This document shows positions 1,509 through 59,216 of a DNA stretch of 64,000 bases, piece after piece (positions within the stretch are counted from its first letter, which is position 1; the number at the start of each line of letters is the position of its first letter). Origin of the DNA: a virus. The translations under genes were made by a program, and so were the position numbers. The DNA is taken from the IMG/VR virus record IMGVR_UViG_3300034060_000074; one strand, given 5' to 3'. The notes under the pieces are model-generated. The model was not told where the DNA came from. It saw only the letters and a list, made by a program, of their open reading frames with translations, and made no database searches.

Positions 1509-2009
1509 TTAACGAGGTTCTGTAGTTGTTGTACTGGTGGTACTAGTAGACGTACTAGTAGACGTACTAGTAGAAGTAGTTGTTGTTGTAGGTGTTGCTG
1601 TAGTAGTGGTAGTAGTAGTTGTATTACTAAAACTTACTTCAGGATCAAAACTAGAACATGTACAACCAGCTCCTGCTGTAATAACTGTTGTAGTTCCTGC
1701 TGCATCTGCTGCAGATATAGAACCAGTTACAGCACATATAGTGGCTACTAATAAATTGCTACCAACTAAGTTTACAGTTTGTGTGCTGTTGTCAACACCA
1801 GATCTGTAAGTGATAACTGTTGATACAGCACCTTCAGCAGTTGCTATAATTTGATAAGAGGTACCACCACTGTTACACTCGTACCCTTGTACTTGCTGCC
1901 AGTTACCCACTTTTGGTTTTGTTCGTCTAAGGATTAAGCTCCCTGCAACTACTCTGCCACTACCATCGTAGCGGACATAAGCTTTAAGATCACGATTGTT
2001 ACTTCCCAT
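1509..2009 (-). CDS. Putative virion-associated protein with a C-terminal poly-Thr/Ser tail
   Basis: N-terminal KAYVRYDGSGRVVAGSLILR domain; last ~36 aa are almost all T/S. Confidence 0.75.
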   Translation of the reverse strand: MGSNNRDLKAYVRYDGSGRVVAGSLILRRTKPKVGNWQQVQGYECNSGGTSYQIIATAEGAVSTVITYRSGVDNSTQTVNLVGSNLLVATICAVTGSISAADAAGTTTVITAGAGCTCSSFDPEVSFSNTTTTTTTTATPTTTTTSTSTSTSTSTSTTSTTTTEPR

Positions 2010-2025
2010 TGTTTAAATTTTATGG

Positions 2026-3042
2026 TTAATAGTTAAGGTTATATTTTTGTTTCAATTCTAATAATTGTTGTACGTAATAATGATTAGCGTGTTTTTTAGA
2101 ACCTTCATCATTTAATACTACGTCTAAGTGTGTATCTTTAAAAGGATCTTTACCAGCGTGATATGCTCCTTTATAGAAGGCAGGATATCCCATACTGTTT
2201 TGTCCTGTAATTCCTGCATTGTGTAGAAGTGTTGTTCTATCCAGTTTCTCAATTGGATCTGAAGACCAACAAAATTCTAATTCAGGAATGTTCTTAGTCT
2301 CTTGTTCTCTAAGCCAAATGTTCCATAGCACAGCCCACATATCTGCACACCAGCTTTGAAACCCTTTGTTCTCATCTTTAAAGAACTGTTTGTTTATGTT
2401 CTGAAGATATGTACGAATAAGTACAGAATCATTCATCACCTTCTTCCAGAAGTCAGAATCTATGTTCTTAAGGAAGTATTGAGCTCCTCCTGAATGTTCA
2501 TTGTTAGCTTCAGCTATTTCTCTATTGATGCCCACCAAGCTTGTAATTTCAGCTAGAACATCTCTAGTTTTGTATTCTTCAAGCTTCTCTGGAAGCACAT
2601 CTCTCACTTTACTATCAAAATATGAAGCATTGATATAACTGTTTGTATCAGATAGATAGTTTATATCATCATCTTTAAACTCATCAATGTTAAATTTATC
2701 TGTAAATATGACATCACAATCACAGTAAAACACTGCTTTGGTGATCATATCAGGATTGTCCTGAAAATACCTCATTAAGCAATAGGGACGTAGAATAGGA
2801 ATATACACTCCTAAATACTGACTAACGTCTCCTGTATCCTTGTAGAAAGCAAACTGTGCTTCTGGATACAGCTCCATTATCTTCTCCCATTTACCATTGT
2901 ATTCTCTAAAACTAGGTGTGTACACTAAAACAATTGCCTTGTCTGAGTGCCCAAGCTTCTTCAAGCTTTCTAACCATAGATGTACCTGCCATGTGTAGTA
3001 GACATCATCTGGCTGGGCACAGATAAATTTAAGATCCTTCAT
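2026..3042 (-). CDS. GT-A fold glycosyltransferase resembling plant peptidyl-Ser galactosyl / Hyp-arabinosyl transferases (GT96/GT95-like)
   Basis: YYTWQ near the N-terminus, DxD (FYCDCDVIF), WCADMWAVLWN and a late LLHNAG. This order recalls the Y..WQ / DxD / W..EMY / H pattern of SGT/HPAT enzymes (from memory). Confidence 0.55.
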   Translation of the reverse strand: MKDLKFICAQPDDVYYTWQVHLWLESLKKLGHSDKAIVLVYTPSFREYNGKWEKIMELYPEAQFAFYKDTGDVSQYLGVYIPILRPYCLMRYFQDNPDMITKAVFYCDCDVIFTDKFNIDEFKDDDINYLSDTNSYINASYFDSKVRDVLPEKLEEYKTRDVLAEITSLVGINREIAEANNEHSGGAQYFLKNIDSDFWKKVMNDSVLIRTYLQNINKQFFKDENKGFQSWCADMWAVLWNIWLREQETKNIPELEFCWSSDPIEKLDRTTLLHNAGITGQNSMGYPAFYKGAYHAGKDPFKDTHLDVVLNDEGSKKHANHYYVQQLLELKQKYNLNY

Positions 3043-3068: not shown

Positions 3069-3218
3069 TTAAGGAGTAGCTGTTGTTGTTGTACTAGTTG
3101 TACTAGTTGTGGTAGTATTAGCAGCAGTCACTCTAATCAATTGTTCTAATTGCTTAGATATTTGCCAAAGCAAATTATCTGTAGTACTCCAACCTATTTG
3201 TCTTGATGGTATTGCCAT
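3069..3218 (-). CDS. Small protein (49 aa) with a poly-Thr tail
   Basis: Not in the ORF track; hand translation MAIPSRQIGWSTTDNLLWQISKQLEQLIRVTAANTTTTSTTSTTTTATP; fills the gap between two genes. Confidence 0.8.
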   Translation of the reverse strand: MAIPSRQIGWSTTDNLLWQISKQLEQLIRVTAANTTTTSTTSTTTTATP

Positions 3219-3235
3219 TATATTAATATTTTATA

Positions 3236-4324
3236 TTATCCTACTTGATTTACTGTTACAATTAATCCAGGAATAGCAGGAATATCTCCTGAAGCTACAG
3301 CTGATGTAATTGCTATTGCATTATCTGCATTACTGTTTATTTCCCACTTAAGCTGTACATATTCATTAGCCACTGTTGTCTTAAAGAAAAAGTTCCATGC
3401 TGGTACAACATATATAGAGTTGGAAGGAAATCCTATTTGTGAAGCACTAATAGGTACACTTACACCATTTTGTGCTAACCAAATATGAATATGTGTAGCA
3501 GTGTTACCACTATTTTTTACCATCTGAGCACTAAACGCTATATTATATACACCAGGATTAGCTATTGTTATTTGAGAACCAGAAACAAGTGAAACTCCAT
3601 TGTTCCATGGATCTGAATTATTAAGACCCATTGTAAGAACAGCTCCTGCAACACCTGTTTGAGTAGTAGTGTCATAGAAAGATCCTAAATAACCAAATCC
3701 TCCAGCAGCCCCACTTGTTCCTGATGTACCTGATGTGCCTTTTGTTCCTGAAGACCCTGATGTTCCGCTTACTCCTGATGTACCAGAAGAACCTGTCGTA
3801 CCACTTGTTCCGCTAGTACCAGCGGTTCCACTTGTTCCATTAACACCACTTGTTCCAGAAGAACCAGTTAGTCCTGATGTACCTGACGTACCATTAGAAC
3901 CATTACCACCAGCAGCACCATTAAGGTTTACACCCCATGAGGTGTAAGTTCCTGATCCTACCACTTCAGAAGGAGCATCAAACACCAAAACCCCTGTAGC
4001 AGGGTTGTAGGATATAATCATTGAAACCTGATGGTTACTAATGTTATAAGCTATCAATATATCTTGAGCAACTGTGTATGCCAGTCCTGTACCTACAGTG
4101 ATGGTTCCACCAGTTCCTAATGTAAATGATGTAGAAGATGTAGTTTGATATCTGTCTCCAGATGCACCAGTTAACCCAGATGTACCAGATGTGCCTGAAG
4201 ATCCATTTGTACCTGATGTGCCAGCTACGTTTTTGATCAGGGTATCTAAATTAAGCCACCCCTTGTAACCATTACAAGGTTCGCATCTCTGATCCCAAAA
4301 ACCAGCTTTAATAAACGTAGGCAT
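3236..4324 (-). CDS. Collagen-like (Gly-Thr-Ser) fibre with a C-terminal C1q/BclA-C-like beta domain
   Basis: Two G-X-Y runs made of G/T/S flank an ~85-aa globular insert; C-terminal YLGSFYD...SQITIANPGVYNIAFSAQ resembles a TNF/C1q-like jelly-roll head. Confidence 0.65.
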   Translation of the reverse strand: MPTFIKAGFWDQRCEPCNGYKGWLNLDTLIKNVAGTSGTNGSSGTSGTSGLTGASGDRYQTTSSTSFTLGTGGTITVGTGLAYTVAQDILIAYNISNHQVSMIISYNPATGVLVFDAPSEVVGSGTYTSWGVNLNGAAGGNGSNGTSGTSGLTGSSGTSGVNGTSGTAGTSGTSGTTGSSGTSGVSGTSGSSGTKGTSGTSGTSGAAGGFGYLGSFYDTTTQTGVAGAVLTMGLNNSDPWNNGVSLVSGSQITIANPGVYNIAFSAQMVKNSGNTATHIHIWLAQNGVSVPISASQIGFPSNSIYVVPAWNFFFKTTVANEYVQLKWEINSNADNAIAITSAVASGDIPAIPGLIVTVNQVG

Positions 4325-4469: not shown

Positions 4470-4598
4470 CTACTTACCTTGACCTTTATATTTCTTTACT
4501 GGTTTGTCTTTTGGACCTTTTGATTTAGCAGCTTTACCACCTTTGCGTTTTCCAAATGTAAGTTTTGTAGAGGCCACTCCTCCTTTTGCTTTTGCCAT
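4470..4598 (-). CDS. Very basic small protein (42 aa)
   Basis: Not in the ORF track; hand translation MAKAKGGVASTKLTFGKRKGGKAAKSKGPKDKPVKKYKGQGK, TAG stop at 4470-4472. Confidence 0.75.
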   Translation of the reverse strand: MAKAKGGVASTKLTFGKRKGGKAAKSKGPKDKPVKKYKGQGK

Positions 4599-7998: not shown

Positions 7999-8367
7999 TT
8001 AGTAGGGCTGATAGGATTTCTCCTCTACAAAGTCAGACCCATACTTAATATTAATTTCTTTTTTAATATATGCTCGCTTGTCATTCAATCTATAAACAGA
8101 TCTAGCTAGGTCAACAAACTCTTCTCCAAAACTACTAGATCTTTCAAAGTCTCTTAGAAGATCTTCCACCTTCCAGAGAAACTGGTTCACCTTAAGAAGT
8201 TCATCAGTCATAGGATCATGTAATATCTCAGGATCTATCACTGTGTTTAGGTAGTTTTTTTCCTTGAAAACATTAACCAATTTGTCTTTGTCCTTTATGT
8301 TCAAAGCTTTGATAGATAATATTGTCCATTTATCTACCACTTCTCCTATAGAAACTTCTATTTGCAT
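7999..8367 (-). CDS. DUF6165-family protein (probable start MQIEVSIGE at 8367)
   Basis: IEVSIGEVVDKWTILSIK...LWKVED..R...F..LARSVY..ND.RA.IK.EIN..YGS..VEEKSY pattern. Confidence 0.75.
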   Translation of the reverse strand: MQIEVSIGEVVDKWTILSIKALNIKDKDKLVNVFKEKNYLNTVIDPEILHDPMTDELLKVNQFLWKVEDLLRDFERSSSFGEEFVDLARSVYRLNDKRAYIKKEINIKYGSDFVEEKSYQPY

Positions 8368-8377
8368 ACTAAAAATG

Positions 8378-8408
8378 TTTGATATTCCACGCAAATATAC
8401 TAATTTTG
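8378..8408. promoter_or_regulatory. Back-to-back divergent Bacteroidota-type promoters
   Basis: Plus strand TTTG (8378-8381), 19 nt, TAATTTTG (8401-8408); minus strand TATATTTG (8392-8399), inside the 58-nt gap between divergent genes. Confidence 0.65.
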
Positions 8409-8425
8409 TTGTAAATACAATTAAT

Positions 8426-11400
8426 ATGCCCAACAGTTATACATATTTTAAGGAAGAAGTCAAGGAATGGTTCAAGAATAATGTTCCTGCTAGTACAAGA
8501 ATATTAGATATAGGCCCTGGACAAGGTACATATGGTAAGCTTTTAAGTGATATTGGGTATAGAGCTATAGATGCTGTTGAGGTGTGGGAACCCTACATTA
8601 GTGAGTATAAACTATGGGAGTATTATGGGATTATATACAACAATGATATACGTGAGTTTGATTGGTCTGAGTATGATTTTATCATCCTAGGTGATGTGTT
8701 AGAACATTTAACAGCTGAAGAAGGACAAAAGCTTATCAATGATATTGCCATGGCTAGGAAGCAATGTTTGGTTGCTATTCCATATATGATGGAGCAAGAT
8801 GGTGAGCAGTATGGTAATACATATGAAACCCACCTGCAGGCAGACCTTACAAAGGAAGTGATGGCAGAGCGTTACCCTACACTAGACTTGCTCTATGCAA
8901 ATGAGCATTATGGGTATTATGTAAGTAAGAAGGTGGTAGACAAAGCATTTGTACTCTATGCCACAGAAGCCTATTATGATATTGTGACAGCCTGTGTACA
9001 TTCTCTTACAACATTTAGTCAGTATCCTGTATTTGTTTACATGCTTAACTCTGACAAAAAGGTACCCAGAGCTACAACCATTAAATGGAACTGTGATATA
9101 GATCCAATAGAATACAACACCAAAGACCAGTTCTACATCAACAGGACAGATGATAGAATATATAACATCCTCATACAGCGTCCACTGATTGTTATAGACT
9201 GTCTAAAGTATGCTGACAGTGTGATGTATGTAGACAGTGACAGTGTTGCTACACCTTTTGTAGACAAAGTGTTTAATTATCCTGTCTCTGAGTATCCCCT
9301 GTTTACATCTAGTATCTATGACCAAATGTTTCTGAATGGAAAAGGAGATCTTGAGAAACATATATGTGAACTTCTAGCTATAAAGAGAGGCAGGTATATA
9401 CAAACAGGATACTTCCTAGCTAGTGTGAGCTGTCTGAAGTTCTTAAAGGAGTGGGCTAACATGTGTACTCATCCTACAATACTAAAAGACTTTAAGAAAT
9501 ACGCACCCTTCCATGAAGAAACTGTAGCCAATGCTGTACGCTGGAAGTATGAAATAGATCAGTCATTACCACTCATCTATACCAATGCTAGCTTGGATGT
9601 ACTAGAGAACATAGATAAATATGAGTTTGGTAAAGAACATTGGGAATGGTTTAAGCTACCTGATAGTAAGCATGAGTTGTTCTTTTACCATGGAGAGAAA
9701 CGACCAGATGTAATGTATAAGATGATTGATAGATTGAAAGGTAATAAAAGAGTGTTGTTCCTAGCTCCTCATCTATCTACAGGTGGTATGCCTGCGTTCC
9801 TATTAAAGAGAATACAAGAGATAAGCTACTGCACAGACATCTATGTAGTTGAGTACCAATGCCATAGCTTAGACTTTGTTGTACAGCGTAATGCAATCAA
9901 AGAGATTGTAGGATCTAACTTCACTACACTGTATGAGAACAAGATGGAACTGTTTGATATTATTGATAGCTGGAAGCCAGACATCATTCATCTGGATGAG
10001 CCTGCTGAGAGATATGACAGAGAGATGATTACTAAGTTGTATGATACAAACAGATCATACAAGATTGTAGAGACATTCCATGATGTAGCATTTAAGCCTG
10101 AAGAAAAAATCTTTCAGTCAGAAGCATATGCATTCTGTACACCATATCACCTCAATAAGTTTACCAACCTACAAGGTTATACAAAGGTGATTGAGTTTCC
10201 TATAGAGGATAAAAGGCCAGATGCTGTAGGTAAAATAATAGCTAAGAATATACTAGAGTTTGCTCCATTCAAGACCAGTGTTGTAAACATAGGACTATGG
10301 ACCCCAGGCAAGAATCAAGCAGAGGGAATAGAGATAGCTAAGAAGTACCCTCATATGGATTTCCATTTTGTAGGTAATCAAGCTGGTAACTTCAAAGACT
10401 ACTGGGAACCATTAATGAAAGACTTACCACCTAATGTAAAGATATGGGGAGAAAGAAATGATACATGGAAGTTTATGAGAGCTGCAGATATATTCATGTT
10501 CAACAGCACATGGGAATGCAACCCTCTTGTACTTAGAGAAGCAATCAGCTATGGTCTTCCTATCATAGCTAGAAACCTTCCTCAATATGAAGACATGTTT
10601 ACTAAGTATTTACAACCAATAGATACAGACTTAAACACTATACAAACTAACTATGAAGTACCTACAGAGAATACATTCAGACAAGACTACATAGACTTCT
10701 ACAACCACGTAGACTCTATTTCTTTACAGCCACAAGATGTAACCATCACACAACACTATGTTGTTAATCCATTCCTTGAGATAACAGGTGTGAGTGATAG
10801 TAATTTCAAGGTGGAATTCTATGATGAGCAGGGAGCGTGTCACTACAGTAGTGTGATCAAAACCAACCAGTGGGTAAAGCTAGATAGAAGCTATTACACT
10901 AAATGGAGAAGTAAGATATGGCAGGATGATGTTCTTATACATGACTACACATTAGACTATACAGACAAGACTGTCTTCATCTACTTTGATAGTGAGAGTC
11001 TTGGAGATACAATTGCATGGATACCATACTGTTTAGAGTTTAAGAAGAAGCACAACTGTCATGTTGTTGTTAGCACATATAAAAACTTCTTGTTTGAGAA
11101 AGCATATCCAGAGCTTGAGTTTGTTGCACCTGGAACACCTGTCAATGCTTATGGAGAATACATAATAGGTTGGAGATATAATAAAGACCAAGAGCCTGAG
11201 TTGTGTAACACTATACCTCTACAGAAAGCAGCTGCTAATATACTTGGACTACCATATAGAGAAATAAGACCTAGGTTTGCTTATACACCTGTGGAGTTTG
11301 AAGACAAGAGTAAGTATGTAACTATTGCTACAAACAGTACAACAGGATGTAAGTTTTGGACTAGAGAAGAGTGGCAGGAGTTAATTAACTATCTAGTGGA

Positions 11401-11803
11401 GAAAGGATACAAGGTGTATAATGTATCTAAAGAAAGAAATCCATTTGACAGATGTGTACAGATAGAAGATACATCAATGGATAACACCATTAATATGATT
11501 TGGAACAGTAAGTTCTTTATAGGACTATCTAGTGGATTAAGCTGGTTAGCTTGGATGATGGGTAAGCAAGTGGTGATGATATCTAACTTCACCAAAGCAG
11601 ACCATGAGTTTCAATCCAACTGTATAAGAATTACAGATGAAACTGTATGTCATGGCTGTTGGAACAATAAAAACTTCAAGTTTGATAGAGGAGACTGGAA
11701 CTGGTGCCCAATCTGGAAGGGTTATGACAGACAGTTTGAATGCCATAAAACCATCACAGCAGGTAAAGTTATAGCTTCCCTTCAGTCTTTAATTGCTCTC
11801 TAA
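8426..11803 (+). CDS. Four-domain enzyme: SAM methyltransferase + GT-A (DxD) + GT4-like + TibC/BAHT-like protein heptosyltransferase domain
   Basis: ILDIGPGQGTYG...ILGDVLEH (class I MTase); YVDSDS (DxD); FLAPHLSTGGMP...KNQ...ADIFMFNSTWECNPLVLREAISYGLPII (GT4); ESLGDTIAW...FIGLSSGLSWLAW...CHGCWN-C-C (TibC-like). Start moved to the MPNSY Met at 8426, just after the promoter. Confidence 0.8.
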   Translation: MPNSYTYFKEEVKEWFKNNVPASTRILDIGPGQGTYGKLLSDIGYRAIDAVEVWEPYISEYKLWEYYGIIYNNDIREFDWSEYDFIILGDVLEHLTAEEGQKLINDIAMARKQCLVAIPYMMEQDGEQYGNTYETHLQADLTKEVMAERYPTLDLLYANEHYGYYVSKKVVDKAFVLYATEAYYDIVTACVHSLTTFSQYPVFVYMLNSDKKVPRATTIKWNCDIDPIEYNTKDQFYINRTDDRIYNILIQRPLIVIDCLKYADSVMYVDSDSVATPFVDKVFNYPVSEYPLFTSSIYDQMFLNGKGDLEKHICELLAIKRGRYIQTGYFLASVSCLKFLKEWANMCTHPTILKDFKKYAPFHEETVANAVRWKYEIDQSLPLIYTNASLDVLENIDKYEFGKEHWEWFKLPDSKHELFFYHGEKRPDVMYKMIDRLKGNKRVLFLAPHLSTGGMPAFLLKRIQEISYCTDIYVVEYQCHSLDFVVQRNAIKEIVGSNFTTLYENKMELFDIIDSWKPDIIHLDEPAERYDREMITKLYDTNRSYKIVETFHDVAFKPEEKIFQSEAYAFCTPYHLNKFTNLQGYTKVIEFPIEDKRPDAVGKIIAKNILEFAPFKTSVVNIGLWTPGKNQAEGIEIAKKYPHMDFHFVGNQAGNFKDYWEPLMKDLPPNVKIWGERNDTWKFMRAADIFMFNSTWECNPLVLREAISYGLPIIARNLPQYEDMFTKYLQPIDTDLNTIQTNYEVPTENTFRQDYIDFYNHVDSISLQPQDVTITQHYVVNPFLEITGVSDSNFKVEFYDEQGACHYSSVIKTNQWVKLDRSYYTKWRSKIWQDDVLIHDYTLDYTDKTVFIYFDSESLGDTIAWIPYCLEFKKKHNCHVVVSTYKNFLFEKAYPELEFVAPGTPVNAYGEYIIGWRYNKDQEPELCNTIPLQKAAANILGLPYREIRPRFAYTPVEFEDKSKYVTIATNSTTGCKFWTREEWQELINYLVEKGYKVYNVSKERNPFDRCVQIEDTSMDNTINMIWNSKFFIGLSSGLSWLAWMMGKQVVMISNFTKADHEFQSNCIRITDETVCHGCWNNKNFKFDRGDWNWCPIWKGYDRQFECHKTITAGKVIASLQSLIAL

Positions 11804-12155
11804 TCTTTGTAGCAGAGATGTCACTTATTTCTTGAGGAGGAACATGTTCAACAACATCATATCCTACACCTCTACCAAAGTTAATAGACTCAATGTCAGG
11901 AATGATTATTAGTCTCACTTTGTTTTCTTCAATAAGATCTATTAGTTCTTCTGATAGATTCATCATTATTTGATATGCTGACCAAGGGTTCTTTTCATCT
12001 TGCTTAACATCTCGTACACATAGCAAGACCTTCTTTCCCTGGTTTAACTGTTGATCAATTAACCATCTGTGACCTTCGTGCCATGGTTGCCATCTTCCAA
12101 TGAACATAGCGTAGCCATCTGTCTTTCTATTTCCTTCAGCTAAAATATTCTGCAT
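11769..12155 (-). CDS. HxGH nucleotidyltransferase (cytidylyltransferase/NadM-like fold); possible minimal sulfate adenylyltransferase
   Basis: FIGRWQPWHEGH...NPWS...ISATKIRE motifs; coupled to the APS kinase gene. Confidence 0.7.
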   Translation of the reverse strand: MQNILAEGNRKTDGYAMFIGRWQPWHEGHRWLIDQQLNQGKKVLLCVRDVKQDEKNPWSAYQIMMNLSEELIDLIEENKVRLIIIPDIESINFGRGVGYDVVEHVPPQEISDISATKIREQLKTEGKL

Positions 12156-12574
12156 ATACGTTTGATTTGATCCACACTCTTCTCTATAGAAGTGTTAGAT
12201 GTATTAATAATTGAATCTATATTATCTCTATTTGGAACTTCAAAGTCTTCCACTTTAAATTGATCTCTACCTCTATCTTCTTCATATATAAGATAGATCC
12301 ACTTAACATCTCTAGTTAGACTGCTTAGATACTGTCTAGCTTCTTCATAAGGATACACTAGTGATAGAACAACATTGTGTCCTTTGTAGCTTAAATACTT
12401 TGCTATGTCACTAGCTCTGTTTAAGTTTTTAATCCTACCTTCTCTACTGTAGTCTTTGTTATTAAACATGTCTCTTAAGTCATCACCATCTATGTGGTGG
12501 AATCCCTCTGCCATAAACTTTTTAGCTAGGGTTGTCTTGCCTGATGCAGGCTGTCCAAAAATAACTATTATCAT
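12140..12574 (-). CDS. cysC: Adenylylsulfate (APS) kinase-like P-loop kinase
   Basis: GQPASGKTT P-loop, DGDDLR, DYSREGRIKNL and a late EVP motif typical of APS kinases; short (144 aa). Confidence 0.7.
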   Translation of the reverse strand: MIIVIFGQPASGKTTLAKKFMAEGFHHIDGDDLRDMFNNKDYSREGRIKNLNRASDIAKYLSYKGHNVVLSLVYPYEEARQYLSSLTRDVKWIYLIYEEDRGRDQFKVEDFEVPNRDNIDSIINTSNTSIEKSVDQIKRICRIF

Positions 12575-13389
12575 TTTGTATATCTAAATTGTTGAAAAAA
12601 CCATTGATAATTATCAAAGATCCAATTACTAACATCCTTACCTAATAAAGCTTTTGCTTTAGAGGGTACAGGTTCTAATCTAGTACGAATAGTATGGTCA
12701 CCAAAGCTTCCATACACTTCATCATCTTCTTTAGTTACTTGCTCTATGTTGTCCCAATCATGTTGGTAATATGGAATGCCTAAGTATTGATATATCCTTG
12801 TCATCTCTGTATCAGGATATAAACACAAGTCTTCAAATCTAACAAATAACATGTTCTTATCTGTACCCATTCTAAATATCTCTTGTAATCTTTCAATAGC
12901 AAGACCAACAGGTTGACTCTGTGCCCATATGTCTATACGTTTTGGAACTGTTGTTCCTTGCATCTGTGCCCAATTGAGAATAGCATTAGCCTTATCAGGA
13001 TTCTTTCTATAGTTGTTTTCCATAGAAGCAAAGATATCTCTAAGGTCCCTGACCATGCATATAATCTTTGGCTCTGGATGAATGAAGTTTAGGAAGTCAT
13101 AATGTATTCCCCATCCTCTACTCTTATCTACAACATATTTCTTATCTGTAATAGCATTGTAATAAGCAATCATTCCTTCTTTACAGAATGCTTGGAATGC
13201 AGCTTTCATCACCTGTGAGTCTTGAGCTTGAAACTCTGGACTGTCTGTGTAATTACCTCTAGCAGCAAACACCAATTCAAGAACACCACTAGTTGGTGTA
13301 GCATATACGTCTGGGTTTTGTGCTAATATGTTTTGTAACAATGTTGAACCTGCTCTTGGTAATGAGCTTTGATAGAATATATTTTCCAT
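12571..13389 (-). CDS. PAPS-dependent sulfotransferase
   Basis: SLPRAGSTLL (5'-PSB loop), RDLRDIFAS (3'-PB motif), VRFEDL. Confidence 0.88.
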   Translation of the reverse strand: MENIFYQSSLPRAGSTLLQNILAQNPDVYATPTSGVLELVFAARGNYTDSPEFQAQDSQVMKAAFQAFCKEGMIAYYNAITDKKYVVDKSRGWGIHYDFLNFIHPEPKIICMVRDLRDIFASMENNYRKNPDKANAILNWAQMQGTTVPKRIDIWAQSQPVGLAIERLQEIFRMGTDKNMLFVRFEDLCLYPDTEMTRIYQYLGIPYYQHDWDNIEQVTKEDDEVYGSFGDHTIRTRLEPVPSKAKALLGKDVSNWIFDNYQWFFQQFRYTK

Positions 13390-13390
13390 A

Positions 13391-14266
13391 TTAAGATTTT
13401 AAAGATGCAATAACTTGATCTACATTAAATATTTCTGTTTCATTGTTATATGGAAACTCTAATAGGTTTCCTGATATATCAAACTTCTGCAAGTATGCAT
13501 TACGTAACTCAGGCTTCTTGGTGAATGGATTACATACAATGTTATCATGTACATGATGTCCAAACACTTTAGGTTTGTTACACACCCAAAGGACTGTAGA
13601 AGGTTTATTCATAGCAGCAGCTGCGTGATGGCCAAAGCTATCCATAAACAATCTCTTACTACTAAGTTCTATAAGAACAGCTAGTGCTCTGAAGTTGTCT
13701 GTAACAGGAGTGGTGAAGTCATAACCAATCTGATCTTCTCTTCTTATGTGTACAATGTTATATTCATTTTTAAACTCCTCAATAACAGGACCTATAACAC
13801 ATGTAGGGATGTCTCTAGCCCATGAGTATTTCAACTCTTGTCCTGGAGCACCACCATTTGTTTGTAATAATAAAATAGGTTTGTCAGATGTAAACTTCTG
13901 ACCAAAGAATTTACGTTCTCTATCTGTAAGATAGAGCTTAGGTATGCTACTCTCAGGAGCGTCAATGCCAAACATCTTTGTCCATGTGAGACTCAAATGT
14001 TCATTCTGCATAAGATGTTCTGTCTGTATATATGGATCATGTCCAAACACTTTAAACTCTTTATCCTCTATAAAATCTTCATAGAAGTATTGTGTCATAC
14101 CAAAAGAAAATGAGCGATACACAAAGGGGTTGTTTATAAACACCTCTGGGTAACCGCTCATTACAATTAATTGACTATCAGGATATTGTGTATGAATTGC
14201 TTCACATACAGATGTGGCAAGTATACACTTACCTATACCACCATTGATTTGAAAAATGATATTCAT
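13391..14266 (-). CDS. GT9-like (heptosyltransferase-fold) glycosyltransferase
   Basis: GGIGKCILATSVCEAI N-terminus; LFMDSFGHHAAAAMNKPSTVLW matches the GT9 D(S/T)...H.A.A..KP...LW motif. Confidence 0.7.
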   Translation of the reverse strand: MNIIFQINGGIGKCILATSVCEAIHTQYPDSQLIVMSGYPEVFINNPFVYRSFSFGMTQYFYEDFIEDKEFKVFGHDPYIQTEHLMQNEHLSLTWTKMFGIDAPESSIPKLYLTDRERKFFGQKFTSDKPILLLQTNGGAPGQELKYSWARDIPTCVIGPVIEEFKNEYNIVHIRREDQIGYDFTTPVTDNFRALAVLIELSSKRLFMDSFGHHAAAAMNKPSTVLWVCNKPKVFGHHVHDNIVCNPFTKKPELRNAYLQKFDISGNLLEFPYNNETEIFNVDQVIASLKS

Positions 14267-14324: not shown

Positions 14325-14702
14325 TTATTTTGCTGTAGTGGTAGTAGTGGTAGTTGTAGCAGGAGCACTAGTAGTTGTACTAGTTGTAGTTGTTGAATCT
14401 ACAAACACTGCTGCAGCTAATGCGTCTAATAAAGCTTGATCAAGATTAGCAGCTTCCACTCTAAATGATTGTGCATCTGGGCTATTAGGTAACCAGTCAC
14501 TAAACAAAGTGTTGAAGTTATTAATAGCATGATATGTCTTTGGACCTGTGTAGCCTACTGGCTTACCTGCCCATACGTTGTCTATCACTGCTTGTGCTTC
14601 TGCTTGTACATCTGCAATAGCTACCTGTACGTTTTGTGTGTCAGAAATTACCTGCACTGTACCAAAACCAAAAATGTGGATTGTATTCCATGCGTTTGCC
14701 AT
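14325..14702 (-). CDS. Hypothetical protein with a C-terminal poly-Thr tail
   Basis: Ends DSTTTTSTTTSAPATTTTTTTTAK; directly downstream of the giant fibre. Confidence 0.75.
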   Translation of the reverse strand: MANAWNTIHIFGFGTVQVISDTQNVQVAIADVQAEAQAVIDNVWAGKPVGYTGPKTYHAINNFNTLFSDWLPNSPDAQSFRVEAANLDQALLDALAAAVFVDSTTTTSTTTSAPATTTTTTTTAK

Positions 14703-14722: not shown

Positions 14723-17700
14723 TTAAATTAAATTATTGTTTTTAAGTATATTTTCTATTATTTTTATTCTATCTTTTAAGCTATCATTCTCAGCTTTAAG
14801 TTCTTTGAAAGCGTTTACATAAGAAGCATATATGGCATCCTTCTCAAATTGTAGGATTGGACTACCACCTTGTTCAACTATCACCTCAAGACCATTCTCA
14901 TCCACTCTAGATAGTGGGTTTGTTTCCACTACACAAGACATTACTTGTTGTACTTCCTGTGCTATGAAACCATATTTCTTATGACATGATGTATCACCAT
15001 TCCAGCAATAGCTTACAGGCCTCAACTTAACAATATCATCTAGACCAAAGCAAGTATCTTGAATAGTATTCTTTCTTCTACAATCAGAAATACCACCACC
15101 CCATTGACACAAGTTATTTACAAATGTGTAGTTATTAGCTACACCTGGAATACAAGAACCAATAATGTGAGAGTTAGTTGTGCTATTACTACAGTTATAT
15201 GTACCACCTAAAATTGTTGACCAAGGAGAAGAAACATTTATTAAATTGCAACATCCACCCCCCATAAACGAACAATCAGCATATGTAAGATTACCATATC
15301 CGCCAACTACAACAGAGCGACAACCATTTGCTATATTATATAAACCACCACCTATTGTTGATTCATATCCTGATGCTGTGTTTCCTACACCACCCCCTAC
15401 AAAAGAAACATATCCTGATGCAGTATTTGAAGTGCCTCCTGTTATAGCACTTCTTGTATTTGAAGCAACGTTGTTTGTTCCGCCTGCAATTACTGACATA
15501 GCACCACCTATGGTATTGTTACTACCTCCTCCACCTATTGTAGAACAGTTAGCACTTGCAAAGTTAGAACTACCACCACCTACTGTTGAATTTATTCCTA
15601 ATGCACAGTTACTTGTACCTCCACCAACAAATGAACGACCACCTGTTGCTCTATTTACATAGCCACCTGAAACTGTTGAATAAGCTCCTGATGAACTATT
15701 ATTATAACCTCCTCCAACAAAAGCTCTTGGGCTTGTGGCACAGTTATCGCTACCACCTGCTGTTGTAGACCAAACACCTGATGAAATGTTTGCTTGACCA
15801 CCTCCAACAAATGAACAAGCTCCTGTAGCTGTGTTTGAAATACCACCTCCTACTGTTGAGCGATAAGCTGATGCTGTATTAGAACTACCTCCTCCAACAA
15901 CACTTGAATAACTACTTGATATATTAGAATTGCCTCCTCCAATAAAAGCAAAATAACAAGAAGCTGTATTATTACTACCGCCTACTACAGAACTTCTATA
16001 GAAATTGGCAGTATTTGTGAAACCTCCTCCTACAAATGACCAACCTCCTGATGCAATGTTATATCTTCCACTAAATGTTCCTGAACAACCTCCTGATGCA
16101 GTGTTTTGTAATGCACCACCTACAACAGAATGTCCTGATGATGCTATATTTAATTGTCCACCACTAACAGTAGCGTGTCCTGCTGATGCTATATTAGTAT
16201 TACCGCCTCCAATAGTTGAACAAGCCCCTGAAGCTGTATTTACAGCACCTCCTGCAATAGCAGATGTATCTCCTGAAGAAGTGTTTGAATTACCACTACC
16301 AATAAAACTTCTATATCCTGATGCTGTATGGTTACGACCACCAACTATTGTTGCCCAAGTAGTAGAAGCTGTATTTAAATAACCACCAACAACTATTGCA
16401 TATTCACCCCCACACGCTTTGTTACCATAACCACTACCAACAAATGAGAACGTAGTTGCAGCTAAATTACTTTGACCTCCTGCTACCACTGAAGCAACTC
16501 CTGATGATGTATTACCTTGACCTGAAGCATATGCAAACCCACCATTTGCAAGGTTGCCACACCCTCCTGATATTATGGAACAAGCTCCTGAAGCTATGTT
16601 ATATAAACCACTTCCTATAAATGAGTTACAACCACTTGCTGTACCTGAATCACCACCTGCAATTGCTGCGTATATTGCACTAGCTGTGTTACCATTACCA
16701 CTTCCAATAAATGCTCTAGCTCCAGAGGCAGTATTTACATTACCACCTGCTACTGTTGCGTGAGCTCCTGTTGCTCTATTCTGAAATCCTCCTCCAATAA
16801 AACTATACGCACCTGCTGCACTAAATGTTGGTGCCACTGTAAATGCACAAGCAGCAAGACTCCAAGTACCTCCTGATGTATTATTACCTACACCTCCACC
16901 TACTACAGCACCATAAGCTAAACAACCTGATGTTGCATTATATACATTATTGCAGTTACCACCACCAATAAATCCACCAAAAGCTGCAGCATAGTTTCTG
17001 CATCCTCCGCTAATAGCAGAACTTAAACCTAATGCTTGGTTTCCATAACCGCCGCTTACTGTAGAACCACCATTACCTGCTGCTTCATTACTTAATCCAC
17101 CTCCTATAGATGAATACGCACCTGATGCAGTATTTACTCTACCGCCTGCAATAGCAGCATTACTACAAGATGCAGTGTTGCAACAACCACCGCCTATTGC
17201 TGAATGTGCTCCTGAAGCTGTATTATTTCTTCCTCCTGCTACAGTAGAAAACCCTCCTGAAGCAGAATTATAATAACCGCCTCCAACAGAAGAGCAACCA
17301 CCACCTGCTGAAATACCATATCCACCACTAACTGTTGCATAAGCAGTTGTAGCTGAGTTTAGTCTACCACCACCAACAGTTGTCCAATATGAAGATGATG
17401 TATTACCACACCCACCACCTAAAAATGAACAAGCTCCTGAAGCTGTGTTACCTTGACCACCTGCTACTACTGATTTAGCTCCACTTGCTATATTAGAAAG
17501 TCCTGAACCAACAAATGAATTAGTTCCACTTGCTGTGTTTGTATCACCTCCTGCTATGGTACCATAACCTGCACTTACAGTGTTATTTGCACCACCACCA
17601 ATTGTTCCATGTATTACTGCTGAATTGTTTCTTCCACCTGATACTGTTGAATAAGTACCTGATGCAGTATTATTACATCCTCCTCCTGAAAATGAATAAT

Positions 17701-20700
17701 CTCCTGTAGCTTTTACAACTCTACCACCAACTACAGTGCTATGACTTCCTGTTGCACAGTTAAAAAGACCTCCTCCTACAAATGCTCTTGTATTTACTGC
17801 TTGGTTCAATTCTCCTCCTACCACTACAGTATAATTATTTGATGAAGTGTTAGAACATCCTCCTCCTACAAATGCACAATTACCATTAGCAGTGTTTGCT
17901 CTTCCTCCTGATACTGTTGAATGGGCTGCTGAAGCAAGATTGGCTTGACCTCCTCCTACTGTAGAAAAACCACCACTTGATGTATTACTAAATCCACCTG
18001 CTATTGTTGAATAGCACGCAGATACTGTATTTAAATAACCACCTGCTATTGTAGCCAAGTAACCACTAGCTGAGTTTCCTCTACCACCACCTACTGTCGA
18101 TTGTCCATTAGAAGATGTGTTACTAGCTCCCCCACCTACTACTGAACAGTTTCCTGATGCAGTATTACCAAATCCTCCTCCTATAAAACCACGATACCCT
18201 GATGCTGTATTACTAGCTCCACCTGCAACTATAGAATCTGCACCATTTGATACATTGCTTCTACCTCCTCCTATAAATGACCAAGTACCTGATGCTGTGT
18301 TAAGACAACCACCAACTATTGTAGCAAAAGTATTAGTAGCCCTATTCTGAAATCCTCCTCCTATAAAACTAAAATCACCTGCCGCACATATTGTAGGTGC
18401 AACATTAAATCTTTGACCATTCCAAGTACCACCTGTTGTATTACCACCTACACCACCTGCTATTGTTACAGCACAAACTTTTGCACCACAAATATAGTTT
18501 GAACTACCCCCACCAATAGCTGCAAACCCATTACCAAATGCAGTAGATACACTACAAATAAAATTTTGATAGCCTCCTGATATTGTAGAATAACTTGCAG
18601 AGTTAGTATTAAAATACCCACTCAATATAGATGCATAAGGTTTAGGGGCACTATTACCAAATCCACCACCAATTATCGATAAGTCACCTGATGCTATATT
18701 GCATCCGCCTCCTAAAACAACAGAACAAGCATTTGAGGCTGTGTTATTTGCACCACCTCCAACAATTGAATGTCCACCTGATGCTGTGTTTGAGTTTCCA
18801 CTGCCAACAAAAGAACGACTTCCTGAAGATATATTTCCTAAACCACCTCCTATTGTTCCTTCATATCCACTTGATGTATTTGCTCTACCACTTCCTACAA
18901 AAGAATATCCTGATGAAGCTGTATTACCACAACCTCCTGCTACTGCTGCTCTATAAGATGACGCTGTATTATTTTGACCTCCTCCTATAAATGAATGTGC
19001 ACCACTAGCATTATTGCTTTGACCTCCACCAATAGCAGCACAAGCTCCTGAAGAACTATTTAATTTACCACTACCTATAAAGGAATGACTTCCTAATGAA
19101 ACGTTATTACACCCACTAGCAATACCTGACATATCTCCTGTAGCACAGTTTTGCAATCCTGCACCAACAAAAGCTCTTGCATTTGTTGCAAGGTTTAATT
19201 CACCTCCTGCTACAACTGAATATATACCACTAGCTGTATTTGCACATCCTCCACTTACAGTAGAACAAGCCCCTGAAGATGTGTTAGCTCTACCTCCTGC
19301 TACACTTGCAAAAGCACCTGAAGCAACGTTTTGCTGTCCACCTGATACAATTGCTCTTCCTCCTGTGGCTGTATTTAAAATACCTCCTCCTACAGTTGAA
19401 AAATCTCCTCCTGCTGTATTTCCATATCCACCACTGACTGTTGTATTACAAGATGATGCATTATTACACGCACCACCACCCACTGTAGAACTTGAATATG
19501 CGTTAGCACAATTTTTATAACCACCTGATACAGTTGAATAACTTCCTGTTGCTCTATTCTGAAATCCTCCTCCTATAAAAGAGTATTGACCTGCAACACA
19601 TTTAGTTGGAGCAACTGTAAAATCACAAGCTGCTAAAGACCAAGTACCCCCTGTAGTGTTGTTTCCAATACCACCTGCTATGGTAGCACCAAGAACTAAA
19701 CAAGATGATGTAGGGCTGCAAATTATATTACATAATCCTGCTCCAACAAATGAATAAATACCACCTGCATAGTTTACACCACCACCAACTATTGTTGATT
19801 CTATGGCTGATGCTACGTTTGCATATCCTCCACCTATAAACGAATAACATCCTGATACAGTATGACCTCTACCGCCACCAAGGAATGACATACAGTTGCT
19901 CACTGTATTAGAAAATCCACCTACCGCTGAAGAATATCTTGAACTTACAGTATTTCCATATCCACTTCCTATAAATGAACTAGTTGCTGTAACTGTGTTC
20001 CTATCTCCACCTGCTATTGTTGCAAAATTTCCACAAGCTACGTTCGTACATCCACCTCCTACAGCAGCATATACTGCTGAAGCTATGTTACTTTGACCTC
20101 CTCCTACTGTAGAACAAGCTCCTGAAGCTGAGTTTAGATAACCTCCTGCAACCACAGAGTGAGAACCTGATGCAGTGTTTGCCTGACCGCCTAATATAGC
20201 TGCTCTATATCCACTTGCAGTGTTAGCCCATCCTCCTGCTACAACAGTTTGATAATAACTTGCTGTGTTAGCACATCCATTTCCAACAAATGAACCAACT
20301 CCTGAAGCTGTGTTACCTTTTCCACCAACCACTGCTGACTCTCCTGACGTTGCAGCATTAGCACATCCTCCACCTACAAAACTACAAGCCCCTGATGCAG
20401 TGTTTGATATACCACCTGCAACTGTTGAGTTTGCTCCTGAAGCACAGTTACTTGTTCCTCCTCCTATAGTGGAACGATTACCTGATGCTCTATTTATGTA
20501 ACCACCTGATATTGTAGAATATGTATTTGAAGCACTATTATTATAACCTCCACCTACAAACGCTCTTGGACTTATAGCACAGTTATCACTACCTCCTACA
20601 ACTGCAGACCAAGCACCTGTTGCAGTATTTGCTTGACCACCTCCAACTGTTGAACAGTTACCTGATGCAGTGTTACCTTGACCACCTCCAATAAATGACA

Positions 20701-46666: not shown

Positions 46667-46686
46667 ATCAAACGTTTATATGTGGT

Positions 46687-58667: not shown

Positions 58668-59216
58668 TTAACAGCTTACATAGTTTGTAAGTTCTCCATT
58701 AACATCTACTTCCACTGCATAATCAGTACCACTTCTGGTTAATTTTCTCCATCCCACTGAACCAACAAATGGTGTTGTCAAACTTGGACTATCATAGAAA
58801 ATCATTGTTACAATAGGAACAGTATATCCAGGTAAAGCATAAACAAGACTTGTTGTAGTTGAACCACTACAAGCACTAGCAGAACTACCTGTAGCTGAGT
58901 TATCAATTGTATATTCCACAGGTCCTGCTACAGTAGTTGTTGTAGTTGTTGTACTAGTACTAGTAGATGTGGTAGATGTAGTTGTTGTGGTGGTTCCTCC
59001 AGAAATAAGCATGTCAAGAGAGTTGGTACATGTTGCCAAAGAGGTCACTCTAATAATAGTAGCTCCATCAGGTACACCTGTTAGGGTGTATCCTGCTTGT
59101 AAGGCTGCTTTTGATATACCAGAAGCTAAGGGTGTAGTGTATCCATCTGCATCTGAATAGATGTCAAATGGGCCTGTATCTGCCCCAGCTAGGGTTAATG
59201 TTACTAAGACTGTCAT
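58668..59216 (-). CDS. Two-domain putative virion decoration protein with a poly-Thr linker
   Basis: Domain A (LTLAGADTGPFDIYSD...), a ~21-residue T/S linker, domain B (YDSPSLTTPF...VDVNGELTNYVSC). Confidence 0.7.
   Translation of the reverse strand: MTVLVTLTLAGADTGPFDIYSDADGYTTPLASGISKAALQAGYTLTGVPDGATIIRVTSLATCTNSLDMLISGGTTTTTTSTTSTSTSTTTTTTTVAGPVEYTIDNSATGSSASACSGSTTTSLVYALPGYTVPIVTMIFYDSPSLTTPFVGSVGWRKLTRSGTDYAVEVDVNGELTNYVSC

Follow-up and report, generated by a model that had tools for sequence, protein, structure and literature searches.

A GT-A fold phage glycosyltransferase gained and lost together with poly-Thr tails on head and tail proteins, and a probable sugar coat on the virus particle

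On which acceptor does a phage glycosyltransferase act when its gene lies between two small genes whose products end in runs of threonine? This question is raised by positions 2,026 to 3,042 of the window, i.e., the whole stretch of 64,000 nucleotides of viral DNA analysed here (IMG/VR record IMGVR_UViG_3300034060_000074). The original prediction had read this arrangement as a priming protein O-glycosyltransferase sitting between its substrates. The gene and the motifs of its product are the following.

2026–3042, minus strand: phage glycosyltransferase gene, 338 aa, GT-A fold, phrog_4417 family, without a Pfam family; predicted poly-Thr protein O-glycosyltransferase
2986–3000, minus strand: YYTWQ, residues 15–19, in the first helix after beta strand 1; family consensus YFxWQ in two homolog alignments
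2713–2724, minus strand: CDCD (C107-D108-C109-D110), predicted DxD motif for metal and nucleotide-sugar binding, where a beta strand ends
2335–2352, minus strand: WCADMW, residues 231–236, family signature preceded by the conserved Q229
2212–2229, minus strand: LLHNAG, residues 272–277, with H274 as candidate third metal ligand

The reading frame is open from its ATG start over all 338 codons. Its product matches phrog_4417 (E 7e-54), annotated as "unknown function", a family that counts 774 clusters at 50% identity and is present in 77 deposited phage genomes. This transferase family is large and unannotated, and includes viral as well as prokaryotic members. The four motifs named in the original prediction were all located in the protein, and their conservation among homologous sequences indicates that they are more than chance. 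Indeed, among 69 homologs of 30–49% identity, D108, D110, H274, and K291 are invariant, and Q229, A276, and G277 are conserved to 90% or more; W231, C232, and D234 are invariant in 14 closer homologs. Around the DxD motif, the sequence reads FYCDCD, with Y106 at least 90% conserved in the 69 homologs and strand 103–107 lying just before it in the AlphaFold (AF2) model. Used as a search pattern, WCADMW led to 595 confirmed relatives. The role of H274 as third metal ligand is one that we presume by carrying it over from GT8-type retaining GT-A enzymes. Since D108, D110, H274, and K291 stay invariant down to 30% identity, they are conserved in the way expected of an active nucleotide-sugar site, and the protein is presumably a working enzyme. 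Some relatives are fused to GT2, GT6, GT32-like, PF11397 GlcNAc-transferase, O-FucT, or methyltransferase domains, and related clusters to a peptide-binding PqqD domain.

The AF2 model of the protein (pLDDT 97.5, pTM 0.94) identifies it as a GT-A fold glycosyltransferase, in which beta strand 1 begins at residue 4 and an N-terminal hydrophobic or membrane helix is absent. Foldseek gave 181 matches in the PDB at E ≤ 1e-3; the 50 of these that were listed are GT-A enzymes without exception. Via structure comparison, the model reaches Z values of 12–14 to more than 10 GT-A families, with residues 1–337 covered. The best solved structures, i.e., glycogenin, LgtC, Skp1 AgtA, UGGT, LARGE1, and GlyE, are all retaining GT-A enzymes (Z 12.7–14.1, 221–240 residues aligned, rmsd 3.7–4.0), and a retaining mechanism may be expected here too. 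The Z of 14 to glycogenin and LgtC comes alongside the invariant D, D, H, and K, which may correspond to the catalytic DxD, His, and Lys of GT8.

Among predicted models (AlphaFold-DB/Swiss-Prot), the top nine Foldseek matches are SGT1 and HPATs (TM 0.58–0.62, E 5e-10 to 4e-7); the leaders comprise Arabidopsis SGT1 (E 5e-10, TM 0.60), eight legume or Arabidopsis HPATs, and Chlamydomonas SGT1, and Gnt1, glycogenin, and other GT8 enzymes rank behind them. For SGT1 and HPAT1-3, the best of these matches, E runs from 5e-10 to 1e-7. Algal clusters with an HPAT domain give TM values of 0.54–0.71 (best 0.70–0.71), and GT8 and GT6 enzymes 0.4–0.5. The nearest named clusters by language-model features also carry PF23452 HPAT. 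Comparison of these predicted models places the fold closer to HPAT (GT95) and SGT1 (GT96) than to other GT-A families. Sequence searches gave little. The Pfam scan of the 338-aa protein returned nothing at E ≤ 1, PF23452 HPAT and PF01501 Glyco_transf_8 included; PF23452 found nothing at E ≤ 10 over the whole contig and, against the 69 relatives, brought only 2 to E 0.012, short of the cut-off. In the PDB, the single 338-aa query had no match by phmmer, and the family profile had just two weak ones (E 0.0099 and 0.36), to E_1r26 and a designed protein. Hence, the resemblance to plant SGT1 and HPAT claimed from the motifs is upheld at the level of the fold only, by the top Swiss-Prot matches, the Pfam HPAT model not scoring. 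The Foldseek check proposed with this claim, in which an unrelated GT8/GT-A glycan elongase as best structural match would speak against it, divides: SGT1 and HPAT lead among the predicted models, as claimed, but GT8-type enzymes lead among the solved structures, where no listed chain is named GT95 or GT96.

The closest named folds are thus those of HPAT1-3/RDN/PLENTY (GT95, PF23452) and SGT1/SERGT1 (GT96), which have the GT-A fold and the DxD motif in common with the phage enzyme and no significant sequence match to it. HPAT is a hydroxyproline O-arabinosyltransferase and SGT1 a peptidyl-serine alpha-galactosyltransferase, both of which prime hydroxy-amino acids in repetitive, low-complexity protein stretches. 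In plants, both are type II membrane proteins of the Golgi, whereas the phage enzyme, judging from its model, is soluble and devoid of a membrane anchor. Being phage-encoded, it is predicted to act in the bacterial cytoplasm, and its predicted acceptors, designated by genomic association, are Thr runs, whereas the plant and algal enzymes act on Hyp or Ser of extensin/AGP-type repeats. The GT8-type enzymes glycogenin, LgtC, and GlyE, the best solved matches, have a pattern of DxD, His, and Lys that the phage enzyme may share. Glycogenin starts its glycan on the hydroxyl of a protein. GlyE belongs to the pathway of the pneumococcal serine-rich-repeat adhesin and acts in the cytoplasm on a Ser-rich repeat protein; like LgtC, it lengthens glycans and does not prime them. 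The TM values of GT8-type enzymes lie below those of the HPAT/SGT1 models, and the Pfam Glyco_transf_8 model has no match in the phage protein. A virus-encoded comparison is offered by A64R of Chlorella virus PBCV-1 (PDB 2p6w), a GT-A enzyme acting on the major capsid protein and a structural match at Z 11.2, which differs from the phage enzyme by its origin in a eukaryotic giant virus and its much smaller domain (191 aligned residues). The acceptor sites of A64R are not poly-Thr tags.

We then consider the proteins on which the enzyme could act. The two neighbouring genes, on the same strand as the transferase gene and separated from it by 26 nt (3069–3218) and 16 nt (1509–2009), and the other Thr-rich genes of the window are the following.

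3069–3218, minus strand: 49-aa protein, predicted acceptor; conserved N-terminal 34 aa, then a Thr/Ser tail T35–T48 (nt 3075–3116), Pro last
1509–2009, minus strand: 166-aa protein, predicted acceptor; conserved 45-aa N-terminal module, variable middle, 34-residue Thr/Ser tail (residues 130–163, nt 1521–1622)
3236–4324, minus strand: 362-aa collagen-like (Gly-Thr/Ser-X) fibre protein; Pfam Collagen E 1e-11, tail-fibre PHROGs; about 200 nt upstream of the transferase gene
14325–14702, minus strand: 125-aa protein with a poly-Thr tail at its C-terminus; its gene comes directly downstream of that for a 3083-aa fibre
50000–55093, minus strand: 1697-aa virion structural protein (phrog_37948, E 7e-99) with poly-Thr at about residue 1663, near the C-terminus
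58668–59216, minus strand: 182-aa protein; internal linker of poly-Thr at about residues 74–100
59512–60690, minus strand: 392-aa tail-fibre-like protein (tail fibre PHROGs) with N-terminal poly-Thr, residues 5–20
61719–62879, minus strand: 386-aa protein whose C-terminal Thr-rich tract is weaker (7 of 12 residues)

Both neighbours do end in the Thr-rich runs claimed for them, the Thr/Ser stretches T35–T48 and 130–163. Over the 67.6-kb contig, six ORFs hold at least 8 Thr in a stretch of 12 residues, as against 0.32 on average and 2 at most in composition-preserving shuffles. The fold predicted for the 166-aa protein from 21 homologs is poor (mean pLDDT 46.7), only residues ~6–41 coming near 78. 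The predicted complex of the transferase with the 49-aa protein scored 0.02, with the mark at 0.32, and counts neither way. The collagen-like fibre gene places the cassette among virion fibre genes, and its 362-aa product is itself a possible further acceptor. The same phage also encodes a 1179-aa protein with GT4 and GT9-like domains. The PHROG scan of its four giant ORFs returned no match and did not confirm the crAss-like assignment of the phage.

The association between the enzyme and poly-Thr extends well beyond this phage. A poly-Thr ORF stands beside the transferase gene in 77 of 80 related contigs, and the density of such ORFs in the 80 related loci is 8.68 per 10 kb near the gene and 0.20 further away. 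The three-gene cassette is kept in 78–80 of the 80 loci: the N-terminal module of the 49-aa protein adjoins the transferase in 78, and that of the 166-aa protein is found in all 80, often as 2–3 tandem paralogs whose C-terminal parts differ. The C-terminal part of the collagen-like fibre protein occurs in only 21 of them. Among isolate phages, 11 out of 11 examined carry poly-Thr tracts on proteins at the transferase gene, and in 8 of these the annotated major capsid or major tail protein bears them. Their hosts fall into seven genera (Chryseobacterium, Enterococcus, Lactobacillus/Lacticaseibacillus, Lactococcus, Clostridium, Staphylococcus, and Arcanobacterium), which we take to belong to three bacterial phyla. 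In bIL285 and 4995_1, the transferase gene comes right after the gene annotated as major capsid, and in phiFL1A, Semele, and PMBT8, right after the one annotated as major tail protein. In a diverse IMG/VR set of 80 loci, a poly-Thr ORF lies no more than 2.5 kb away for 15 of 18 enzyme clusters. Within this distance, 29 of the 80 loci have none, and one further contig (L196), that of a distant representative, has none in the 5 kb upstream; thus, the pairing is not always local. In another such contig (L195), poly-Thr linkers are found in the next gene.

Strong evidence comes from orthologs of the same structural proteins with and without the enzyme. Taking two ortholog sets together, 79 loci have the enzyme and the poly-Thr tails, 16 have neither, and 0 are discordant, a tally that overstates the number of independent observations because both sets cluster phylogenetically and together may reflect two to three independent gains or losses. 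In the set built on the phiFL1A tail protein, orthologs accompanied by the enzyme have poly-Thr on both the capsid and the tail proteins in 9 cases out of 9, and those devoid of it in 0 out of 11, the latter proteins stopping exactly where the tails would start. An ortholog of 88% identity lacks enzyme and tail, and one of 84% identity has both. The capsid orthologs of Enterococcus faecium prophages form the second set: enzyme and tails are both present at 70 loci and both absent at 5, with 0 discordant. In the 38.8-kb genome of phiFL1A, gp51 is the only glycosyltransferase-like gene annotated. As far as computation on sequences reaches, this joint gain and loss, together with the lack of another annotated transferase in phiFL1A, supports the idea of a priming O-glycosyltransferase encoded between its substrates.

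We consider it likely that the protein is a cytoplasmic enzyme that primes the poly-Thr tags of virion proteins with their first sugar. Because the enzyme is gained and lost together with poly-Thr tails on head and tail proteins in unrelated phages, the particle itself is probably sugar-coated. The process can be pictured as follows. The transferase, of GT-A fold, with HPAT (GT95) and SGT1 (GT96) as nearest folds, and presumably soluble, cytoplasmic, and DxD-dependent, would take a nucleotide-sugar from the host during late gene expression and place a first sugar on the hydroxyls of runs of ~5–12 Thr. These runs, often followed by x-Pro, would be portable acceptor tags, borne in this phage by the two small flanking proteins, which may be located on the virion, and by several fibre and structural proteins, and in phages of Gram-positive hosts by the major capsid and major tail proteins at their C-termini. 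The outcome would be a mucin-like glycan brush on the virion surface.

Could the virion proteins be glycosylated by an enzyme that is not the poly-Thr primer? It might extend a sugar placed by a transferase of the host or by another one of the phage, or find its main acceptor here in the upstream Gly-Thr/Ser-X collagen-like fibre, for which the Thr glycosylation of BclA in Bacillus is a parallel. The glycan-extending GT8 enzymes LgtC and GlyE are indeed among the best solved structural relatives, the fibre gene lies 200 nt upstream, and further transferase domains (GT4 and GT9-like, in the 1179-aa protein) exist in this phage. However, no second transferase is annotated in small phages such as phiFL1A; poly-Thr tails are present, and a collagen-like gene absent, beside the enzyme in the Gram-positive phage loci examined; the collagen-like C-terminal domain is kept in 21 of 80 clade loci as against 78–80 for the poly-Thr cassette; and the nearest folds belong to SGT1 and HPAT, which prime according to the functions given in their Swiss-Prot names. 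We regard such a non-priming role as improbable.

Still less probable, in our view, is a transferase aimed at a non-protein acceptor, either host envelope glycans (for serotype conversion or superinfection exclusion) or phage DNA, with the poly-Thr stretches serving as flexible linkers, left unmodified, that just happen to lie in the same late-gene region. Phage-encoded transferases that modify O-antigen, teichoic acid, or DNA are well known (DNA glycosylation is the subject of bioRxiv 10.1101/2023.12.21.572611), and protein glycosylation is here a prediction. Against this stand the embedding of the gene in structural modules, after the capsid gene or the major tail gene in the isolates named above, and the absence of an N-terminal membrane helix in the AF2 model. 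DNA hypermodification genes are not annotated in phiFL1A. A model of mere linkers also leaves unexplained why the enzyme and the tails, on two different structural proteins, are strictly gained and lost together. As for a catalytically inactive protein of GT fold, e.g., a chaperone or assembly factor binding the poly-Thr tails and transferring no sugar, the invariance of DxD, His, and Lys across 69 homologs down to 30% identity makes it very hard to credit.

The reading of the enzyme as a primer on poly-Thr tags has a counterpart among mycobacteriophages, the only phages for some of which, to our knowledge, glycosylation of the particle has been shown experimentally. There, the targets of phage transferases are reportedly the C-terminal tails of the capsid and tail-tube subunits, which gives the particle a glycan coat, and this glycosylation is said to affect antibody recognition. 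In both cases, the transferase gene lies in the structural module beside the tagged proteins. Virion O-glycosylation in Che8, Corndog, and Myrna (Freeman et al. 2023, Cell Host Microbe 31:1216) is cited in PMC13313380. In our two ortholog sets, acceptor tails occur on virion proteins only alongside the transferase, as systems of the mycobacteriophage type would require. The carriers differ, being here Bacteroidota-type and Bacillota phages and one Arcanobacterium phage; so does the acceptor, which is here a near-pure Thr run; and mycobacteriophage glycosylation is experimentally proven, whereas that of the present phages is predicted. Our full-text literature search found no paper on this transferase family or on poly-Thr tags of phage proteins.

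With less assurance, we lean towards a broader picture, that of a portable "tag and transferase" system, in which poly-Thr tags on the ends or linkers of any virion protein would be read by a single HPAT/SGT1-like cytoplasmic enzyme, and which would have spread across phages of hosts from three bacterial phyla to give a mucin-like O-glycan brush. In this lineage, it would include dedicated "glyco-whisker" proteins, made of a conserved anchor of 34 or 45 residues and a Thr tail and present as tandem paralogs, and in this genome, an accessory cassette (methyltransferase, GT4, GT9-like, and PAPS/sulfotransferase) that could decorate the glycan. The sulfotransferase/PAPS cassette was rejected as a core part of the system because only 2 of 26 full-flank relatives have it.

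If this reading is true, a function would be assigned to an unannotated PHROG, a plant cell-wall enzyme superfamily would be linked to viruses of bacteria, and the closest relatives of the plant enzymes that glycosylate extensins would be phage enzymes. Several carriers are cultured phages whose hosts are laboratory strains, such as prophage bIL285 of L. lactis IL1403, which makes the proposal testable. The hosts of family carriers include Enterococcus, Staphylococcus, Lactococcus, and Lactobacillus. A real coat would bear on phage therapy (through immune clearance and stability), on dairy phage biology, and on phage display, and would provide a simple tag, encoded genetically, with which proteins could be O-glycosylated in the bacterial cytoplasm.

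The enzyme gene and its two neighbours lie on the same strand, with gaps of 26 nt (49-aa ORF) and 16 nt (166-aa ORF):

3069-3218, minus strand: 49-aa protein upstream of the enzyme gene, with a Thr/Ser run (T35-T48) at its end
2026-3042, minus strand: intact enzyme ORF, 338 aa, with YYTWQ (residues 15-19), CDCD (107-110), WCADMW (231-236) and LLHNAG (272-277)
1509-2009, minus strand: 166-aa protein downstream of the enzyme gene, ending in a 34-residue Thr/Ser run

The original prediction had proposed an SGT1/HPAT-like priming protein O-glycosyltransferase placed between Thr-tailed genes. Indeed, the four motifs quoted for the enzyme are all found in its translation, and the Thr tails are seen on both neighbouring genes. 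In the 67.6-kb viral contig containing the window (estimated 58% complete), six ORFs reach at least 8 Thr per 12-residue window, against a mean of 0.32 in composition-preserving shuffles. Besides the flanking proteins, poly-Thr tracts are carried by a 125-aa protein beside the 3083-aa fibre gene, a 1697-aa virion structural protein (phrog_37948; close to the C-terminus), a 182-aa protein (internal) and a tail-fibre-like protein (N-terminal), and a weaker one ends a 386-aa protein. The structure model of the 166-aa protein is of poor quality. Its 45-residue N-terminal module ends in a Glu-Cys-Cys-Asn motif and heads tandem paralogs of 59 to >1,200 aa, whose unrelated C-terminal parts may or may not carry poly-Thr (e.g., 1509-2009 in the window and, in three related loci, L011:11020-11616, L015:11020-11532 and L084:9719-10963). 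The pattern suggests a common docking element on which virion appendages can be swapped.

For the enzyme, Pfam gives no family at E<=1, a single-sequence search matches no PDB chain, and a PDB search with the family profile gave just two weak, unrelated matches. It is a full-length match (E 7e-54) to phrog_4417, annotated in PHROG as "unknown function". Clustered at 90%, the family has >2,194 proteins, all lacking informative names, and at 50% identity it forms 774 clusters; it is carried by 77 deposited phage genomes, mainly of Lactobacillus, Enterococcus, Staphylococcus and Lactococcus, the closest isolate relative being found in Chryseobacterium phage MA9V-3 (36% identity). Y80, D108, D110, Y136, F257, H274, K291 and Y323 are invariant in an alignment of 69 homologs of 30-49% identity. 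In long relatives, the enzyme is fused to GT2, GT6, GT32-like, PF11397 GlcNAc-transferase, O-fucosyltransferase, methyltransferase or radical-SAM domains, partners that befit an enzyme building glycans. Four such relatives (P0267, P0221, P0236 and P0224) were found, and individual fusions include O-FucT, PF11397 GlcNAc-transferase and discoidin domains in a 1369-aa protein, a radical-SAM/SPASM domain in a 658-aa protein, GT6 in a 992-aa protein, and GT2 with a GT32-like domain in a 904-aa protein.

The AlphaFold2 model, built from the 69-homolog alignment, reaches a pLDDT of 97.5 and a pTM of 0.94. Each of its best solved matches is a retaining GT-A enzyme (glycogenin, LgtC, the Skp1 galactosyltransferase AgtA, UGGT, WbbM, LARGE1, GlyE and GT6 enzymes), with Z of 12-14 over the whole chain and Foldseek TM of 0.4-0.5. 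The ranking differs among predicted structures, on which all GT95/GT96 comparisons were made: the top nine Swiss-Prot models are Arabidopsis SGT1 (GT96), eight hydroxyproline arabinosyltransferases of the HPAT type (GT95) and Chlamydomonas SGT1, with TM of 0.58-0.62 for the top eight. The AFDB cluster list is filled by algal "HPAT-like domain" proteins, HPAT clusters of the ESM-Atlas reach TM of 0.70-0.71, and the nearest named clusters by language-model features carry the HPAT family PF23452. Some of these nearest clusters are bacterial and fused to the peptide-recognition domain PqqD; such PqqD fusions, seen in the Atlas, are a hint of peptide (RiPP-like) glycosylation in bacteria. The predicted resemblance to SGT1 and HPATs thus holds for the fold but not for the sequence, since the PF23452 profile gives the enzyme no score and reaches E 0.012 in just 2 of 69 relatives. 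Hence, as modelled, the enzyme belongs to a GT-A transferase family of its own within the HPAT/SGT1 structural neighbourhood.

Among 80 IMG/VR loci of its own clade (enzyme at 67-100% identity), a poly-Thr ORF adjoins the enzyme gene in 77, and the density of such ORFs is 8.68 per 10 kb in the flanks versus 0.20 further off. Most tracts (125/147) sit no more than 45 residues from the C-terminus, the usual unit being about seven Thr and then x-x-Pro. Each flanking protein keeps its N-terminal module in 78-80 of the 80 loci, and the 45-residue module heads two or three tandem paralogs that differ in their C-terminal parts. All 11 isolate phages opened, from seven host genera, have poly-Thr tracts on proteins encoded at the enzyme gene:

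phiFL1A: major head and major tail proteins
E. faecium phage 4995_1: major capsid protein
bIL285, iLp84, TPWB06: annotated major tail protein
nattely, Clostridium FA88: unannotated ~200-aa proteins of the tail region
R3.3: unannotated 305-aa protein directly upstream
Semele, PMBT8, iLp84, TPWB06: small proteins directly upstream
Chryseobacterium phage MA9V-3: products of the two upstream genes

In a diverse set of 80 environmental loci (43-81% identity to another subfamily; enzymes grouped at 60% identity into 18 clusters), a poly-Thr ORF lies within 2.5 kb of the enzyme in 15 of 18 clusters, mostly as the gene directly upstream. On an unrelated metagenomic contig (L195:1050-2324), the gene after the transferase encodes poly-Thr linkers bracketed by Cys, an arrangement seen again in many loci of this set, which may mark disulfide-pinned glycosylated linkers.

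Enzyme and tails are also gained and lost together, in counts that come from phylogenetically clustered loci. Among 20 loci with phiFL1A tail-protein orthologs, all 9 with the enzyme carry poly-Thr tails on their capsid and tail proteins alike, and the 11 without it carry none, both proteins ending exactly at the tail start point; enzyme and tail are missing at the locus of an 88%-identical ortholog and present at that of an 84%-identical one. Of 75 scorable E. faecium prophage capsid orthologs, 70 have enzyme and tail, 5 neither, and none is discordant. No other annotated transferase is present in phiFL1A (38.8 kb), an argument for the enzyme being capable of first-sugar addition.

It is unlikely that the enzyme extends rather than primes, or targets a collagen-like fibre. 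A Pro-free Gly-Thr/Ser-X collagen-like fibre is encoded directly upstream of the enzyme cassette, but this reading fits poorly with small phages that lack both a second transferase and a collagen-like gene. Transfer to host glycans or DNA is less probable still, as it leaves unexplained why tails on two structural proteins come and go strictly with the enzyme, and an inactive binding protein, contradicted by the invariant catalytic-type residues, is very improbable.

The window also contains an accessory sugar-chemistry cassette, small basic proteins and very large ORFs:

7999-14266: cassette with a DUF6165 protein, a 1179-aa methyltransferase, GT4 and GT9-like fusion (plus strand), a small cytidylyltransferase-like protein, an APS-kinase-like protein and a sulfotransferase
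2-489, with contig bases 207-3180 upstream of the window: about six small, Lys-rich proteins encoded in tandem
4470-4598: very basic 42-aa ORF
14723-23974: 3083-aa ORF
24122-29236: 1704-aa ORF
29236-40956: 3906-aa ORF
43880-49119: ORF of 928 + 810 aa

Of 26 close relatives with full flanks, just 2 have the sulfotransferase/APS-kinase part, which is thus a variable add-on; the cassette could sulfate or methylate a virion glycan. Most of the Lys-rich proteins resemble one another at the start, where they have a Met-Ala-(Lys/Thr)-(Ile/Val)-Lys-Lys motif, and these small basic proteins may be packaged DNA-binding or internal proteins. The last four ORFs have no PHROG match at E<=1e-5.

For glycosylation of the Thr tags, we propose that a soluble enzyme, expressed late, would bind a host nucleotide-sugar through its DxD, His and Lys residues and a divalent metal, and would move the sugar onto Thr hydroxyls of the unstructured tags, before or after particle assembly. 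An alpha-linked product is more likely, because all solved relatives are retaining enzymes. In mycobacteriophages, work by Freeman et al. in 2023 (cited in PMC13313380) reportedly described virion glycosylation by phage-encoded transferases; here, the enzyme family is different, the predicted acceptor tag is distinct and simple, and the host range is much wider. Our full-text search, whose coverage lay outside subscription journals, found no literature on this family, on phage poly-Thr tags or on an HPAT/SGT1-phage link. For the phage, tag glycosylation may ward off antibodies, proteases or host lectin-like defences, confer colloidal stability or help adhesion to polysaccharide matrices.
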